DNA of 64,000 nt from Candidatus Aenigmatarchaeota archaeon (lineage in GTDB: Archaea; Aenigmatarchaeota; Aenigmatarchaeia; GW2011-AR5): assembly GCA_016187335.1 (NCBI GenBank), contig JACPJW010000001.1:96001-160000 (forward strand), given 5' to 3'. Positions 23,754 through 60,730 of this stretch are shown here, in pieces (the first letter of the stretch is position 1; the number at the start of each line of letters is the position of its first letter). Both the position numbers and the translations under genes were made by a program. The notes beneath the pieces are model-generated. The model was given only the letters and a program-made list of their open reading frames with translations. It did not search any database and was not told the origin of the DNA.

Positions 23754-24347
23754 ATGAAACTAAGATTGCTAGCCGAAGAAATAACAAAAGCAGAGACTAT
23801 TGAATACTTAGCTGAAGGTGTAAGAAGAGTCGTTCCTGTTCATTTAGATTTTTCGGTAATCGGTGAAAGATATTCTAAAGGTAATGTATGGATGTGCAAT
23901 TTACATCATATAGGTATTAAATTCGTGCCTCCAAATTTAGACGAATACCTGTTAATTCTAACGCATTCACCATTTTCTTACAGGAGGAAAGATATCTCCG
24001 ATCGATTTGAATGGATTGGGAACGCCCACGAAATTAGCTATGCTGGATTATGTGATAATGAAAGTAGAATTCTCATCGTTGGCGGAGACAATTCTCCGAG
24101 TAATGGTAATGTTAAGGTTGCTAGCCATGAAATAGCTCATGCAGTTTTAGGTTATCCCGTAACTTGGGATTTTGAATCTATTCATTGTAAAAATTTTATT
24201 GGTAGCAAAAGATGTGTAATGAATACCGTACAGGAAGTAGGTCAGGGAGTAGGTAGAGACCTCGAAGAATTGTACTTAGGGTTTTGTCAGCCATGCACCG
24301 ATGCAATGAAAGAAGTTGAAAAAAATAAATTCACTCCAAAATCCTGA
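23754..24347 (+). CDS. Archaemetzincin-like Zn metalloprotease
   Basis: HEIAHAVLG...HC....CVM...FCQPC. Confidence 0.65.
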   Translation: MKLRLLAEEITKAETIEYLAEGVRRVVPVHLDFSVIGERYSKGNVWMCNLHHIGIKFVPPNLDEYLLILTHSPFSYRRKDISDRFEWIGNAHEISYAGLCDNESRILIVGGDNSPSNGNVKVASHEIAHAVLGYPVTWDFESIHCKNFIGSKRCVMNTVQEVGQGVGRDLEELYLGFCQPCTDAMKEVEKNKFTPKS

Positions 24348-24365
24348 CGTCATCCACGACGCCGT
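24331..24365 (-). repeat. Orphan copy of the 3' end of the 26317-27237 gene
   Basis: 31 bp (24335-24365) identical to 26321-26351; continues GAG TGA versus GAA TAG, so both copies encode ...GVVDDVRILE*. Confidence 0.92.
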
Positions 24366-26316: not shown

Positions 26317-27237
26317 CTATTCCAAAATCCTGACGTCATCCACGACGCCGTCGTAATCGCTGTCCAAGCCAAGGACAACGTGCGCGTTCTTTTTCTGTAT
26401 TTCATCGAAGCGCTTGAGAAGAGCAAGCACGGCCGCGCGCGTTCCTGAAAACCTTTTCCCGGCTATGAGCAGCAGCTTGCTTTTCCGGTTGAAAGGGTTG
26501 TCCGCCTTGACGATGATGCCGCACTCGTCGCTCCTATAAGTTTTTTTCGTGAGCGATGAGTAGATGTTCTTTTTTGCGTCGAACCGGACGGGCAGCTTGT
26601 CATTGACCGCCCTGGTTATCCTGTTTATGACGGGCCCGCCGATTATTATCAGGTTTTCTTTTACCTCATGCAATTCCGTGTCAAGAACAACAGAAGGCTC
26701 GCTTTTGTTAAGGAACGTTCCCAGAAACAGCGCAAGGTCTATGGCATAGGAAGCATCGCGTGAGCGGGCGCGCTCAGGGCCGTGAGGGTCAGGCGAGCCC
26801 ACGACGATCTTCGCATTGAAAACGCCTTCAGCAATGAAGGGTTCAAGGAATTTGTTGGCTGTTTTAGGAATTTTCTCCGTCTTCTCAAAGTCGCGGAATT
26901 TCAGGAAGAAAGAAGGCTTTGTCAAAACATAAATTTTTGCCAATGTTCCTCCTCTTTCCTCTTTCCTCAGGACCCTTATGATTCCTTGCTTCTCTAGGTT
27001 ATGTACATGGTAGTAAACCTTCTGCTCGTGCATGCGCAGTTGCGCAGCCATTTCCTTGGGGTACGAAGGTTTTTTCGCGAGGGAATGCAGGATCTTCATC
27101 GCCGTCTCAGAAAAATCGGCCTTGCCAAGCTCCGCCGAGGGCAGCGCCAGCACCCTGCCGTCTTTTTCTTCAACTACAAATGCCATTATAACCACAAGTC
27201 TCTTTTGATTGAACTTTGGAGCAGCAAAGTTCATCAC
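26317..27237 (-). CDS. ArsR-type HTH protein with a C-terminal S-layer-like domain (start may be ATG 27186)
   Basis: YPKEMA..L.MHEQKVYYH HTH; IVVGSPDPHG, NLIIIGGPVINRIT, AGKRFSGTRAA. Confidence 0.7.
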   Translation of the reverse strand: MMNFAAPKFNQKRLVVIMAFVVEEKDGRVLALPSAELGKADFSETAMKILHSLAKKPSYPKEMAAQLRMHEQKVYYHVHNLEKQGIIRVLRKEERGGTLAKIYVLTKPSFFLKFRDFEKTEKIPKTANKFLEPFIAEGVFNAKIVVGSPDPHGPERARSRDASYAIDLALFLGTFLNKSEPSVVLDTELHEVKENLIIIGGPVINRITRAVNDKLPVRFDAKKNIYSSLTKKTYRSDECGIIVKADNPFNRKSKLLLIAGKRFSGTRAAVLALLKRFDEIQKKNAHVVLGLDSDYDGVVDDVRILE

Positions 27238-48625: not shown

Positions 48626-50269
48626 ATGCATCCGTTTGCGCAGTTCCGCAAGGAATGCGAAGAGTTGTGCGGCGAAAACGCGCGGTTTCTGGAAGAGCCC
48701 AAGGAGCACGCAGACCTCGCCCTGCCTTGCTTCCGCCTGGGCAGGAACCCTGTTGAGATAGCGAAGCAACTGGAAAAAGACCTGCAAAGCAGGATAAAGA
48801 AGGACTCGCTTGTAAAGGATGTGGAAGCGTCAGGTCCATATATTAATTTTTTCATCGACAACAAGAAATTTTCTCATATTGTTATTCAGCAGGTTTTAAA
48901 TGAAAAAGAAAAATACGGCTCGCAGCCGCGCATGAAAGAAAAGATAATGATTGAGTACGCCCATCCAAACACGCACAAGGCCTTCCACGTCGGCCACGTG
49001 CGGAACATCTGCATCGGCGAGGCCCTGTGCAGGCTGCTCGAAAAAAGCGGTTATAAAGTGATCCGCGCAAATTACCAAGGAGATATCGGGCCTCACGTCG
49101 CGAAATGCTTATGGGGCCTGCAGAACCTGGGCATGTCGCAGGAAAAGAACAAGGGCCTTTTTCTCGGTGACGTTTACGCCGCGGCAAACGCGAGGATGGA
49201 GGGGAACCCCCAGCTGGAATCGGAGATCCAGAAGATTAGTAGCGCCCTTTACAGGAGGAGCGACAAAAAACTGCTCCAGTTATGGAAAAAGACAAGGAAG
49301 TGGTCGCTTGACTACTTCGGCTCGATATACAAGGATTTTGGCGCGAAGTTTGACCACCTTTATTTCGAGAGCGAGGTCTTCGAGGAAGGAATAAGGATGG
49401 CTCGCGAGCTGCTCGAGAAGGGTGTCGCGGAGATGAGCGAAGGCGCCATAATTGCCGATTTGAAAAAGCAGGGGCTCGGGGTGTGTGTGATATTGAAAAG
49501 CGATGATGATCCGCTTTACTCGACGAAGGATCTTGGCCTGGTGAAAAAGCAGTTCAGTGAGTACAAGCCCGATAAAATAATCCATGTCGTGGGCTCGGAG
49601 CAGCGGCTGTACTTCCAGCAGATGTTCAAGATATTCGGCTTCATCAACCCTGACTGGGAAAGTAAGAACTACCATCTTTCCTATGAGCTTGTCATGCTGC
49701 AGACGGGCAAGATATCTTCAAGGGCGGGCAGCGTCGTGACTTACGAGCACCTGATCGAGGAAGGGACTGAAAAAGCGGTGGAAGAAATAAAGGAACGAGG
49801 CATCTCGGAAGAAAAAGCCGCGAAGGACATTGCCCTCGCAGCGGTAAAGTATGCCATGCTGAAAAGGGACACTGATAGGACCATAACTTTTGACTGGTCC
49901 GAAGTGCTTAATTTCGAGGGCGACACCGGGCCTTATTTGCAGTACACTTACGCCCGCGCCTTATCCATTTTACGCAAGAGCAAAAGGAAGCCCAAAGCCG
50001 CTCCGCTTTTTACTGAACTAGAGTTCGACCTTGCAAAGAAGCTTGCCATGTTTCCTGAAATCATTGAAAAGTCAGCAAGGGATTTGAAGCCGAACTATGT
50101 TGCAAATTATCTTTATGACCTGGCGACGCTGTTCAACAAATTCTATCATGAAACCCGTGTTGTCGGCACTAAGGAAGAAGAGACTCGCCTAGCGCTGGTT
50201 GCCGCAACGGCGCATGTTCTTAAAAACGGCATGGAAATACTAGGGATAAAAGCATTAGAGAAAATGTAA
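48626..50269 (+). CDS. argS: Arginine-tRNA ligase
   Basis: HVGH (HIGH), KISSR (KMSKS), FEGDTGPYLQYTYAR. Confidence 0.96.
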   Translation: MHPFAQFRKECEELCGENARFLEEPKEHADLALPCFRLGRNPVEIAKQLEKDLQSRIKKDSLVKDVEASGPYINFFIDNKKFSHIVIQQVLNEKEKYGSQPRMKEKIMIEYAHPNTHKAFHVGHVRNICIGEALCRLLEKSGYKVIRANYQGDIGPHVAKCLWGLQNLGMSQEKNKGLFLGDVYAAANARMEGNPQLESEIQKISSALYRRSDKKLLQLWKKTRKWSLDYFGSIYKDFGAKFDHLYFESEVFEEGIRMARELLEKGVAEMSEGAIIADLKKQGLGVCVILKSDDDPLYSTKDLGLVKKQFSEYKPDKIIHVVGSEQRLYFQQMFKIFGFINPDWESKNYHLSYELVMLQTGKISSRAGSVVTYEHLIEEGTEKAVEEIKERGISEEKAAKDIALAAVKYAMLKRDTDRTITFDWSEVLNFEGDTGPYLQYTYARALSILRKSKRKPKAAPLFTELEFDLAKKLAMFPEIIEKSARDLKPNYVANYLYDLATLFNKFYHETRVVGTKEEETRLALVAATAHVLKNGMEILGIKALEKM

Positions 50270-50306
50270 TATGGTCTAGAAAGAATTTCAAAGAAATTCT
50301 TGGTAG
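50268..50306. repeat. 39-nt family-2 hairpin, covarying partner of 8391-8429
   Basis: AATATGGTCTAGAAAGAATTTCAAAGAAATTCTTGGTAG. Confidence 0.85.
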
Positions 50307-50332
50307 GCATCAAGGCATTGGAGAAGATGTAG
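50306..50332 (+). repeat. Synonymously recoded orphan copy of the argS 3' end
   Basis: GGC ATC AAG GCA TTG GAG AAG ATG TAG versus GGG ATA AAA GCA TTA GAG AAA ATG TAA (50243-50269); both read GIKALEKM*. Confidence 0.88.
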
Positions 50333-50402
50333 GCAAAAACTATCATTGCGTAGTGAAGCGGAAAATAAAGTTTTTTAATCCTTTTCCCTGCTATTTTTCA
50401 TT

Positions 50403-50906
50403 ATGTTCTTCTCAGAAATCTACGGTTCGTGGAGGAAAATACAGGAAGAGAAATACGAGGGCTTGTGGAGCATCCTCGGGAGGGATTTCTTCGCGGCGTT
50501 TGAAAAAAGGCGCGTTCTTGACCTGGGGTGCGGCTCCGGGTATTTTGAGTCGTTCCTGCGCAGCAGGGGCGTGAACGCCGGGATAATCAGCGTTGACGTT
50601 GAATTTACAAAAAAGGTTTCCCCGTTTGTCATTGCGGACGGCGATTCGCTGCCTTTCAGGGACGGTTCTTTTGATATTGTAGTCTGCGTGGACACTGCCC
50701 ACCTCTTAGGCGGCAGCGATTTCCGCCGCGTTCTGCGCAAAAACGGTATTCTGCTGATGAGCGTTTTCTTCAACGGCACAAATTACGGGGAGCGCGCTGA
50801 AATGCTGAAGGAAAAGCTTGGCGGCTTTGAAATTCTGCTGGAATTTGAAACCGGTAAGAGGGAAAGGGACTGCGTAATTGTTGCAAAAAACTCAATGACC
50901 AGTTAA
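50403..50906 (+). CDS. Class I SAM-dependent methyltransferase
   Basis: VLDLGCGSG, DGDSLPFRDGSFD. Confidence 0.85.
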   Translation: MFFSEIYGSWRKIQEEKYEGLWSILGRDFFAAFEKRRVLDLGCGSGYFESFLRSRGVNAGIISVDVEFTKKVSPFVIADGDSLPFRDGSFDIVVCVDTAHLLGGSDFRRVLRKNGILLMSVFFNGTNYGERAEMLKEKLGGFEILLEFETGKRERDCVIVAKNSMTS

Positions 50907-50933
50907 AATAGAAATAAAAAATATAAGAAGAAA

Positions 50934-51161
50934 TCAGACCTTCTTTATTGCGTCGGAAAGAAAATCGATGATTTCTTTTTCCACGGGCACTGCGATGCTT
51001 TTCTTGTAGCGCCTTTCGCCCGTCCTTGTCATGAAGCCGCGGGAAATTGAAATGAATTCGTTTTCCCCTTCTTCCGTGACCGCTTTCTTTCTGGCTATTT
51101 CCAGGAAATTGGAAGAGCCGAACTTTATCTCCTCGCTTTTGATTGTTTCAAATGTTACCAT
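50934..51161 (-). CDS. Small nucleic-acid-binding protein, possibly PC4-like fold
   Basis: Beta-rich; FLEIARK, FISISRGF, KSIAVP; GAGGTG SD. Confidence 0.5.
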   Translation of the reverse strand: MVTFETIKSEEIKFGSSNFLEIARKKAVTEEGENEFISISRGFMTRTGERRYKKSIAVPVEKEIIDFLSDAIKKV

Positions 51162-51351
51162 GTTGCCACCTCGTTGTCGCTTGACGCAAAATCGCGTGAA
51201 TCATGAATTGCTTCGGGTTGTCTTGCGTCTGTTTTTGTTTTCAAACTTTGTTTTCGTTTAGGTTTCTTCCGTTTTGGTTCCTTTCGGTTATGACCGGACT
51301 TTCTGGTTTTTGGTTAAACTTTTTTATAAAAAGGTTGCTTGAAAGAAAAAA

Positions 51352-51597
51352 TCACTTCTTCTTCTCGGCGCGTTCGCGCGCTTCCCATTTCATGTCTTCG
51401 TACTCAATCCAGGCGATGAGAAAGCCCAGGAACGCAAGGAACGCCCCGAAAGTCCCGAAGAACACCGTCTTCAGTGCGCTCCATGTATTAACGCCGAACA
51501 CGCTCCCGTTCCCGAACCAGGGGGTTGAAACGGCGTACCAATAAATGCCTGCGAATAAAATTAGCAGCCCTATGATCATTTTAACTGCTGAATTCAT
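51352..51597 (-). CDS. Small two-TM membrane protein
   Basis: Two hydrophobic helices and a charged tail WIEYEDMK. Confidence 0.7.
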   Translation of the reverse strand: MNSAVKMIIGLLILFAGIYWYAVSTPWFGNGSVFGVNTWSALKTVFFGTFGAFLAFLGFLIAWIEYEDMKWEARERAEKKK

Positions 51598-51658
51598 TTT
51601 TTATCCACCTCTGGTTTACGTGATTATGTTTGTCGCAAAGCTTTTTAAACGCTATTGC

Positions 51659-51724
51659 TACAAGAACATACCGCTAGATATTTTATTAGTGGTATGTTCT
51701 GTACAATGAGAACGTACGTTCTCA
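51659..51724. repeat. Palindrome sharing both arms with 32196-32250, plus a second palindrome TGAGAACG-TA-CGTTCTCA
   Basis: Reverse complement has TACAGAACATACCACT (16 nt) and GGTATGTTCTTGTA (14 nt), identical to the 32196-32250 arms. Confidence 0.85.
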
Positions 51725-53518: not shown

Positions 53519-53884
53519 ATGTCAGAACCCAAGATGCTGCCGCCGAGCATGCGCTCGCAGAAGCGCTATGTTGTATTTGAAATCATCAGCGAGCACAAAG
53601 TCGCTTATCCTGACATCGTCACGGCTGTATGGGCGAACATGTTGGGATTCCTGGGTGAAGCCGCGGCGAGCGAAGCAAAGATATGGAACATAAAAAACCT
53701 GTACGACGAGTCCCAGCAGAAGGGCGTCATAAGGTGTGCGCACGACCGCGTGGAGCATATAAGGACTGTCCTGTCCCTGATGCAGATAATCGGCGAATCC
53801 CGGTGCGTTGTACGGGTCGTCGGAGTGACAGGCACGATAAAGGCTGCCAGAAACAAGTATCTTTCTAAAGAAGCGGAGAAGTAG
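53519..53884 (+). CDS. rnp2: RNase P protein component 2 (Pop5/Rpp14)
   Basis: LPPSMRSQKRYVVF, GVTGTIKAA. Confidence 0.9.
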   Translation: MSEPKMLPPSMRSQKRYVVFEIISEHKVAYPDIVTAVWANMLGFLGEAAASEAKIWNIKNLYDESQQKGVIRCAHDRVEHIRTVLSLMQIIGESRCVVRVVGVTGTIKAARNKYLSKEAEK

Positions 53885-59608: not shown

Positions 59609-59821
59609 ATGCGCAGGCAGGCAAAGAAAATAGAAATAAAAAACGCCATGAAATGCGGGCGCTGCGAGCTTTCATTCAAGAGCATGCTCGCGCTGAAGAG
59701 GCACAGCCACGTGCATCTGGACGACATGCAGGAACTGAGGCTGCTGCAGGAAGGCCACAAGCCCGTGGAAACGAAGTTCGGCGGGATTTTCAAGGGGAAA
59801 AATAAGGTTATAATAAGTTAA
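59609..59821 (+). CDS. C2H2 zinc-finger protein
   Basis: KCGRCELSFKSMLALKRHSHVH. Confidence 0.75.
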   Translation: MRRQAKKIEIKNAMKCGRCELSFKSMLALKRHSHVHLDDMQELRLLQEGHKPVETKFGGIFKGKNKVIIS

Positions 59822-59976
59822 TTCTTTGATTAAACTTTCTTTCTAAGAAAGTTTACAAGAACAGGGTTATTATAAGCTAATTCTTTTGGTGCAACTTTTC
59901 CTAAAAGTTGCTTTGATTAAACTTTGGATTTACTGGCCACAAGTCTCTTTTGGTGCAACTTTGGAGAAGCAAATTG
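59822..59976. repeat. Family-1 palindrome cluster containing a recoded orphan copy of the C2H2 gene 3' end (59857-59880)
   Basis: Modules at 59824-59856, 59883-59910, 59911-59927 and 59947-59976. AAG AAC AGG GTT ATT ATA AGC TAA versus AAA AAT AAG GTT ATA ATA AGT TAA. Confidence 0.85.
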
Positions 59977-59977
59977 C

Positions 59978-60730
59978 TTAGTGACCGCCGTATTTGAATA
60001 ATGCAGTCATGTATATTTTTTCTAATTTAGGTATCTCTTCTCTGGGAAGACGTAACTCCAATGCTTCAAGCGTTCTGCTCATTGACCTGTATCTTACTGT
60101 ATCCCTTATGAAAGGCTTGAATCCTTCTTTGCCGTCATGAGGGCTGACATAATATCTGTTTACAAGATCGCCGAATGCAAGCGCCTCCCGATAAGGCGTT
60201 GTCGTCTCTATTTCTCTTCTTCCATTACCATCTTCATTAAGCCAGCCGCCGTATTCTGCGTATGTCTCCATGAAAAGCGTTGCTAGTGGTTGCGGAACAT
60301 CAGCGCTTTTCAAAAGTCTTCTGGACCTGACATGCCTAGTTTCGTGGTCCGTGACTCTTTGAGGGCGTAAGTGAGAAGGTAAACGTCTATTGAAACCCAT
60401 CACAGGAACTTTCACAGCATCTCTAATTGGGTCGTACTGGAAGCCTGTGACGCCTGGCGGACCGTTTTCATATACTACAACGGGTACTCTACTGTTTTCA
60501 GGTTTATCACCCACGCCAAGGTCATCTTCTTGGTTTATCTTCCTGAAAGACCTTTCTACGCTTGATCTAACATCATAAGGCAAACCGCTTGTATCCAGAG
60601 AAGGCATAAGGAGTCCGCGCAGCATTCCTCTTAATCTGAATCCGGGCATCATGAGCGTAAGTTCGTCCACTAATTCCTGCACGCTTGTCCCGCCCCTGTA
60701 GTCCGAAATGCTTCCTCTCATCCAAATCAC
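59978..60730 (-). CDS. Hypothetical protein with an HExxH zincin motif (ORFan)
   Basis: DHETRH with a downstream ETYAE. Confidence 0.55.
   Translation of the reverse strand: MIWMRGSISDYRGGTSVQELVDELTLMMPGFRLRGMLRGLLMPSLDTSGLPYDVRSSVERSFRKINQEDDLGVGDKPENSRVPVVVYENGPPGVTGFQYDPIRDAVKVPVMGFNRRLPSHLRPQRVTDHETRHVRSRRLLKSADVPQPLATLFMETYAEYGGWLNEDGNGRREIETTTPYREALAFGDLVNRYYVSPHDGKEGFKPFIRDTVRYRSMSRTLEALELRLPREEIPKLEKIYMTALFKYGGH

Follow-up and report, generated by a model that had tools for sequence, protein, structure and literature searches.

A second, silently recoded argS end in a Candidatus Aenigmatarchaeota genome as a probable recombination scar of two species-level alleles

In Escherichia coli K-12, the original 3' end of the icd gene lies stranded, as icdC, on the far side of the prophage e14 (and of phage 21), and the two gene ends show mostly synonymous differences (PMC13626634). 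The insert in that case is a 15-kb prophage, which its integrase placed at a defined att core, and the duplication covers about 50 codons. A second related process is the homology-facilitated illegitimate recombination (HFIR) of bacteria, in which homology anchors one side of the diverged incoming DNA and 3–10 bp of microhomology join its other side, leaving small insertions or duplications at the junction (PMC6382021). Here, we describe a comparable layout at the end of argS, the gene for the arginine--tRNA ligase (ArgRS), in a stretch of 64,000 nt (G000:C2:96001-160000, hereafter the window) of a metagenome-assembled genome of Candidatus (Ca.) Aenigmatarchaeota. After the stop codon of argS and a short palindromic element, the gene ends a second time, with the same eight residues written in other codons. 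As in icd/icdC, a housekeeping gene bears a replacement 3' end, an original end would lie downstream as a pseudo-fragment, and the two copies would come from different genomes. At argS, however, the insert is a 36-nt palindrome, eight codons are duplicated, there is no integrase, and the shared core is TAGG only. Of the described cases, icd/icdC is the closest, and the argS scar most likely arose by microhomology-mediated joining and not by site-specific integration.

DPANN archaea are hard to culture, and DNA exchange among them is known almost solely by inference. The genome studied here, G000 (1.01 Mb in two contigs, 47% GC, 91% complete), was placed in Ca. Aenigmatarchaeota, a DPANN lineage, on the basis of the names carried by the homologues of its ArgRS and deoxyhypusine synthase. 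The end of argS was compared among four lineages of the same genus: G000 itself, its sister genome G001 (locus L002), a metagenome-assembled genome from Northern California groundwater, S3 (L054), a Logan contig from SRR22388212, and S4 (L068), represented by Logan contigs from SRR12113383-385, the same samples as G000.

The features of the locus are collected in Table 1. The initial annotation had claimed that argS ends twice, with differences at third codon positions only, and this was confirmed. Indeed, both copies encode GIKALEKM followed by a stop, and all six differences between them (five synonymous changes plus TAA/TAG) fall at third positions; the probability that 6 of 27 differing sites all fall by chance on the nine third positions is 2.8e-4. 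Copy 2 follows copy 1 at an offset of 63 nt, in frame, and the TAA of copy 1 is the sole intervening stop. The C-terminal ...EKM is common to the ArgRS proteins of all relatives. When the last eight residues of each of the 2758 open frames of the genome were compared with the next 300 nt, argS was the only gene with an 8/8 tail repeat, and chance-level matches reached up to 6/8. The likeness between the copies starts 2 nt ahead of the Gly codon and stops exactly at the stop codon; beyond the first stop lies the palindromic element, which is present once, and beyond the second an unrelated spacer.

The two copies differ at five of seven informative codons, and between-species synonymous identity over the last 60 argS codons is 0.37–0.47. 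Since this divergence is at the between-species level, the copies are, as judged from their codons, distinct orthologous alleles of species-level distance, with different 3' flanks. No copy 2 is present in G001, S3, or S4, all three same-genus relatives examined. The proposal of the initial annotation that two genomes, and not a local duplication, lie behind the copies is thus borne out by the third-position statistics, by the repeat ending at the stop, by the lone palindrome, and by the relatives lacking copy 2. An antisense open reading frame (ORF; 50146-50346) spans the insertion absent in relatives; because it shares its wobble positions with argS, the substitution pattern alone cannot exclude this ORF.

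The reality of the structure was assessed on per-run Logan contigs, retrieved by exact-protein look-up. The exact 221 nt of positions 50200-50420 were found in contigs, up to 15 kb long, of SRR12113422, -424, -430, -431, -383, and -384. The longest word common to copy 1 and copy 2 is 5 nt; therefore, a de Bruijn graph cannot confuse the copies, and an assembler finds no repeat to mis-thread. An identical sequence in separate assemblies of at least six runs is not an assembly artefact, and the doubled argS end was taken as real.

Excision of the 63 nt between the two TAGG copies (50241-50244 and 50304-50307) yields ...MEILGIKALEKM-TAG, a clean single gene end. The flanks of the two TAGG are otherwise unrelated, and these 4 nt are all that is shared beyond the coding similarity. 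The claim that the hairpin sits at the non-homologous junction is upheld: the microhomology lies at the hairpin foot, and removal of the 63 nt restores the single end. In G001 (ArgRS 85% identical), one tail is followed by a small hairpin and by a spacer with the core TGAAACGGGAAA, located 20 nt past the single stop; in G000, the same core (TGAAGCGGAAAA) is found 21 nt past the stop of copy 2. Copy 2 thus keeps the stop-to-core distance of G001, which puts it at the ancestral stop position, with 63 nt extra. S3 (ArgRS 84% identical) has one tail, then only CA and the methyltransferase promoter-like TTTTTAATCC, the spacer being deleted. S4 also has one tail, followed 11 nt on by an element remnant, ATGGTCTGG|GCAG, and then by AAATGTAG and a spacer-like core. 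The tail of G001 shows four differences from copy 1 and seven from copy 2; that of S3 is 4/27 nt from copy 1 and likewise 4/27 from copy 2.

The element between the copies belongs to a family with the consensus (A)TAAT-ATGGTCTrGAmAGAAT-NNN-loop-NNN-ATTCTkGGyAG, whose GGYAG end is conserved in all members; the argS stop TAA doubles as part of the conserved TAAT flank. Six copies are present in G000 and six in G001. A covarying hairpin exactly between the argS ends had been reported in the initial annotation, and the family alignment agrees: among ten members, 97.5% of the cells are paired, 6 of 12 pairs changed on both sides, and 0/500 shuffles were as good. The hairpin at argS (50276-50306) consists of two stems, of 9 bp and 3 bp, with a 2x2 internal loop between them, and 36 nt separate the two copies. 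The full pattern, searched in 185,579 GTDB species genomes and in JGI metagenome contigs, was not found outside this genus, G001 being the sole match beyond G000; no Rfam family matches the window or the hairpin. In most copies, the GGyAG end is followed by a Shine-Dalgarno-like GGTGA/GTGAT motif and by a start codon 8–10 nt on. This position ahead of start codons, beside GGTGA, suggests that the element is not a selfish insert but could act as a promoter or leader module that is portable. Like REP/BIME, Correia, and PATE/MITE elements, it is a short palindrome that is restricted to one lineage, occurs in several copies, and has conserved flanks and compensatory changes in its stem; a difference is that no matching transposase was found in the genome and that most copies lie 8–10 nt ahead of start codons. 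No Y1/HUH transposase (Y1 TnpA, PF01797) was found in G000 (91% complete), control genomes being positive in 6/14. After argS in S4, the hairpin interior has been precisely lost between the element's own TCTGG direct repeats, leaving the remnant given above, which shows a decay route of these palindromes.

A second hairpin family, TTTTGATnAAACTTTT-loop-AAAAGTTT, occurs in about 70–100 copies/Mb at gene ends and beside tRNA and 16S genes. It is also present in G001 and sometimes tandem with a 27-nt period (e.g., window 59822-59975, C2:803318-803400, and C2:419581-419640); it might act as a terminator or be a further kind of intergenic repeat. The window itself contains no tRNA gene.

Table 1. 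Features at the doubled 3' end of argS (window positions)
Feature	Position	Strand	Description
argS, arginine--tRNA ligase, 547 aa, complete	48626-50269	+	Pfam Arg_tRNA_synt_N, tRNA-synt_1d, DALR_1; stops at first stop TAA
TAGG, left microhomology copy	50241-50244	+	Leu-Gly codons CTA GGG
Active tail (copy 1), GIKALEKM + TAA	50243-50269	+	GGG ATA AAA GCA TTA GAG AAA ATG TAA; continuous with argS reading frame
Genus-specific palindromic element	50267-50306	+	5' flank TAAT-ATGGTCT, hairpin CTAGAAAGAATTTC-AAA-GAAATTCTTGGTAG, 3' end GGTAG; from family alignment and covariation
TAGG, right microhomology copy, putative illegitimate junction	50304-50307	+	Element end; overlaps the GGC codon that opens copy 2
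Stranded tail (copy 2), GIKALEKM + TAG	50306-50332	+	GGC ATC AAG GCA TTG GAG AAG ATG TAG; open frame behind it of 20 codons only
Ancestral post-stop spacer	50333-50370	+	Small hairpin GCAA..TTGC (50333-50349) and conserved core TGAAGCGGAAAA (50354-50365)
Promoter-like TTTTTTAATCC and class I SAM methyltransferase gene (50403-50906)	50371-50906	+	Start of the 1.3-kb S3-like island

With moderate confidence, we explain the doubled end as a recombination scar of two species-level alleles of the argS 3' end, joined illegitimately via microhomology. The mechanism is what we infer here; the observations under it are a real structure, two distinct alleles, the junction anatomy, and a copy 2 collinear with the ancestral stop. 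In one allele, argS, its tail, and TAA would have stood directly ahead of the palindromic element; in the other, the tail and TAG would have led into the ancestral spacer and then the methyltransferase gene. The two could have been joined through 3–4 nt of microhomology, TAG(G), which forms the element's conserved 3' foot and also lies in the Leu-Gly codons that precede the tail. Ordinary homologous recombination presumably settled the exchange on its other side. Such a pattern would be that of HFIR or of microhomology-mediated end joining. The outcome would be a net insertion of 63 nt, in which the upstream tail terminates the protein and the downstream one is an untranslated relic, too young for decay. 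The palindrome perhaps matters as a site of fork stalling or end formation. S4, which co-occurs in the same samples, also carries argS followed by an element remnant, so that element-linked alleles were available there. The argS scar resembles HFIR, known from the transformation of Acinetobacter, Streptococcus pneumoniae, and Pseudomonas stutzeri, in that diverged genomes are joined at a microhomology junction of the 3–10 bp type; the difference is that HFIR comes from laboratory bacterial transformation, whereas the argS case is read from a scar that formed in nature, in a DPANN archaeon that is uncultured.

Several points weigh against this explanation. The donor was not found: a degenerate pattern for either tail gave no match in JGI metagenome contigs and 185,579 species genomes, and the closest ArgRS proteins are just 84–85% identical. 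Sliding identity, synonymous identity, and four-taxon site patterns revealed no crossover within argS or over the 8 kb that precede it. The step in similarity between G000 and S3 at the argS end, described below, may be a separate event; the S3 tail is no nearer to either copy than background, and S3 has its own deletion. Should AAATGTAG of S4 and a weak match (8/13) in G001 be left over from the same arrangement, the event would be old, and the intact copy 2 would call for another explanation, for instance selection. Lastly, the 4-nt repeat is equally expected of a target-site duplication.

Other explanations were weighed against the same evidence. That the assembly fused two strains or species that occur together could be suspected because the genome is metagenome-assembled and the related species S4 is in the same samples, with contigs that break near the argS end; it is extremely improbable given the identical sequence in at least six independently assembled runs on contigs up to 15 kb, the copies sharing no word above 5 nt, and their spacing of 63 nt, below a typical short read, so that single reads should span both. 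A local duplication at the palindrome, by slippage or template switching, followed by divergence in place or by overwriting of the coding copy through homologous recombination, would be in line with the stalling of replication forks at palindromes, with the TAGG microhomology, and with the recoded tail of a zinc-finger gene (59.8 kb), which likewise begins at a palindrome foot. Even so, a 63-nt tandem copy would repeat the palindrome and TAA-T, and both are present once, with an unrelated spacer after copy 2. Neutral divergence in place is also at odds with third positions near saturation (Jukes-Cantor distance ~1.6): if a quarter share of it had accumulated neutrally in the stranded copy, about 6 of 18 first and second positions would have changed, and none has (P = 0.001; with an equal share, P = 4e-6). 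Furthermore, copy 1 does not descend from a state like copy 2, as the sister tail shows four differences from the former and seven from the latter. Local duplication is already largely refuted by the architecture, and we regard it as very unlikely.

The layout of new tail, insert, and old tail with mostly synonymous differences is also the icd/icdC pattern round e14 (PMC13626634), and the locus might be the remnant of an integrative element of the e14/phage 21-icd type that carried its own argS end, the body having been deleted later and the palindrome left. A third locus of the window, with 1.95 kb of cargo between two tails, goes in the same direction; that cargo, however, has no integrase, the shared core is of 4 nt only, the 36 nt between the argS copies are from a family usually found ahead of gene starts, and the sole tyrosine recombinase of the genome (PF00589) is at C2:737.8 kb, ~590 kb off on the same contig, which makes this origin unlikely. 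We judge quite unlikely, too, that a mobile palindrome (MITE-, PATE-, or rolling-circle-like) carried 23 nt of a former host's argS tail into TAGG, by 5' transduction with a 4-nt target duplication. The element is multi-copy and genus-restricted, the sites at which it is present or absent are not orthologous, TAGG stands on both sides of the 63-nt unit, and S4 has the element after argS too; yet no Y1/HUH transposase was found in the genome at 91% completeness, no other copy carries foreign coding sequence, and a chance landing at the homologous position of the same gene needs homology, which leads back to recombination. A function of the second tail is highly improbable, either by TAA readthrough, with an extended C-terminus reading ...ALEKM-x-YGLERISKKFLVGIKALEKM and the same C-terminal Met motif, or as an RNA structure with the tails pairing round the hairpin. 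The in-frame spacing, the otherwise stop-free insert, the zero nonsynonymous changes, the predicted fold of 50230-50345 (z = -2.9), and sequences in S4 and G001 that are possibly the old remains of such an arrangement are what would be expected from it. Against it, three of the four genus members do without a second tail, 12 codons open and in phase are expected in about 1 in 5 cases by chance, the tail pairing stems from self-complementarity within each tail, and TAA is the commonest stop in this genome.

Under the joining of two diverged alleles, a further point is which of them was imported: import of the argS end with the element and import of copy 2 with the downstream DNA carry roughly equal weight. 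The initial annotation had favored the former, with a relative's gene end and hairpin recombined in; of that scenario, the two genomes and the hairpin at a non-homologous junction hold, while the direction gained no support over its equally good alternative. Its codon-usage argument for a foreign copy fails, because the genome mean GC content at third codon positions is 0.565 and eight codons cannot decide. Indeed, the genome prefers GGC, as in copy 2, but also ATA and TAA, as in copy 1; AAA and AAG are about equally used, and TTA and TTG are both rare. No upstream crossover was found, and inside argS the three species G000, S3, and G001 are equidistant (pairwise synonymous identities of 0.57, 0.59, and 0.58). 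The HTH locus described below was rejected as a guide to direction, as no close relative carries it.

The genes argS, deoxyhypusine synthase, GTPase, and L15e are all at the same background divergence from the nearest relative. Between them lies an island (~50372-51660; methyltransferase, ORF75, and ORF81) that is 87–99% identical to S3 and to contigs of SRR16110258/267, with the ORF75 protein at 100%, whereas the flanks (argS, deoxyhypusine synthase, GTPase, and L15e) are 80–84% identical; L15e, beyond 51.7 kb, is at 83% nucleotide identity to an S3-like contig from another study. Coherently, synonymous codon identity between G000 and S3 is 0.59 in the GTPase, 0.67 in the deoxyhypusine synthase, and 0.57 in argS, against 0.83–0.86 in the methyltransferase, ORF75, and ORF81, and the four-taxon informative sites pass from 15:7:5 in the 3' part of argS to 32:5:3 and 19:0:0 downstream. 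This pattern indicates a recent short-tract exchange between two species lineages in the 1.3-kb island, and not a foreign argS. The left edge of the island coincides with the argS end, where G000-S3 synonymous identity rises from 0.57 to 0.83; judging from this jump, the 3' boundary of argS is a recombination boundary in this genus.

The G000-S3 step was rejected as a guide to which tail is resident, both tails being 4/27 nt from the S3 tail and S3 having its own deletion at the boundary. A single imported block of 9.5 kb between the recoded tails at 50.3 and 59.85 kb is not supported, S3-like similarity being already at 83% in L15e, at 51.7 kb; nine proteins at 54.7–62.4 kb without cluster mates at 90%, and an ORFan as the gene to the right of the second tail, were also counted against it. 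As a separate observation on this region, a contig of SRR12113430 matches the window exactly over 6.2 kb and then shows 12 differences in its final 63 nt (window 53633-53695), a strain-variable boundary in the population.

The genome-wide search for recoded tails suggested in the initial annotation returned at least two further stranded tails in the window and more candidates elsewhere in the genome. A C2H2 zinc-finger gene ends in KNKVIIS-TAA at 59798-59821, and KNRVIIS-TAA follows at 59857-59880, 35 nt past the first stop and in another frame. These tails differ by four synonymous changes and one Lys/Arg change; the second stands directly after a palindrome (59832-59854), and after each of the two come TTCTTT and a separate hairpin. 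A gene of 306 aa with a helix-turn-helix (HTH) and S-layer-like features (26317-27237, minus strand) ends in GVVDDVRILE-TAG, and the same ten codons, ending in TGA, occur 1.95 kb downstream. The two tails, at 24331-24364 and 26317-26350 (minus), are identical over a repeat of 31 nt, after which one reads GAA TAG and the other GAG TGA. Between them lie three genes, which encode a winged HTH protein, an unknown protein of 331 aa, and an M23 peptidase; no integrase is among them. The tail scan gave further candidates at C2:224265, 509258, and 524936.

Two side observations belong to these loci. Convergent with the zinc-finger gene is a 250-aa ORFan (window 59978-60730, minus strand), for which no homologue was found among 5.8 billion proteins. 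At G000:C2:892590-892870, two adjacent genes, one for a protein of 263 aa and one for a membrane peptide of 63 aa, have GMVGGC as their last residues, a shared C-terminal motif and not a stranded tail.

A broader and tentative idea, which we consider rather unlikely, is that the palindromic intergenic elements of this genus are preferred docking or breakage points in a regular mode of gene exchange: DNA arriving from a sister species would supply a new gene tail, alone or together with cargo genes, be joined at the palindrome foot, and leave the old tail stranded. If true, such a hairpin-guided tail replacement would explain at least three scars/Mb and the recurrent rearrangements of the argS end in four species.

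On present evidence, the argS end is a known kind of scar, and not a new molecular machine or mechanism. Its value is that a stranded, silently recoded tail is a rare direct footprint of two species-level alleles that met in one chromosome, with the exact junction visible. Scanning for recoded tails after stop codons could be a cheap map of short-tract exchange. Several such footprints in a 1-Mb genome, together with the adjacent 1.3-kb island, suggest that interspecies short-tract recombination is frequent in this groundwater lineage.

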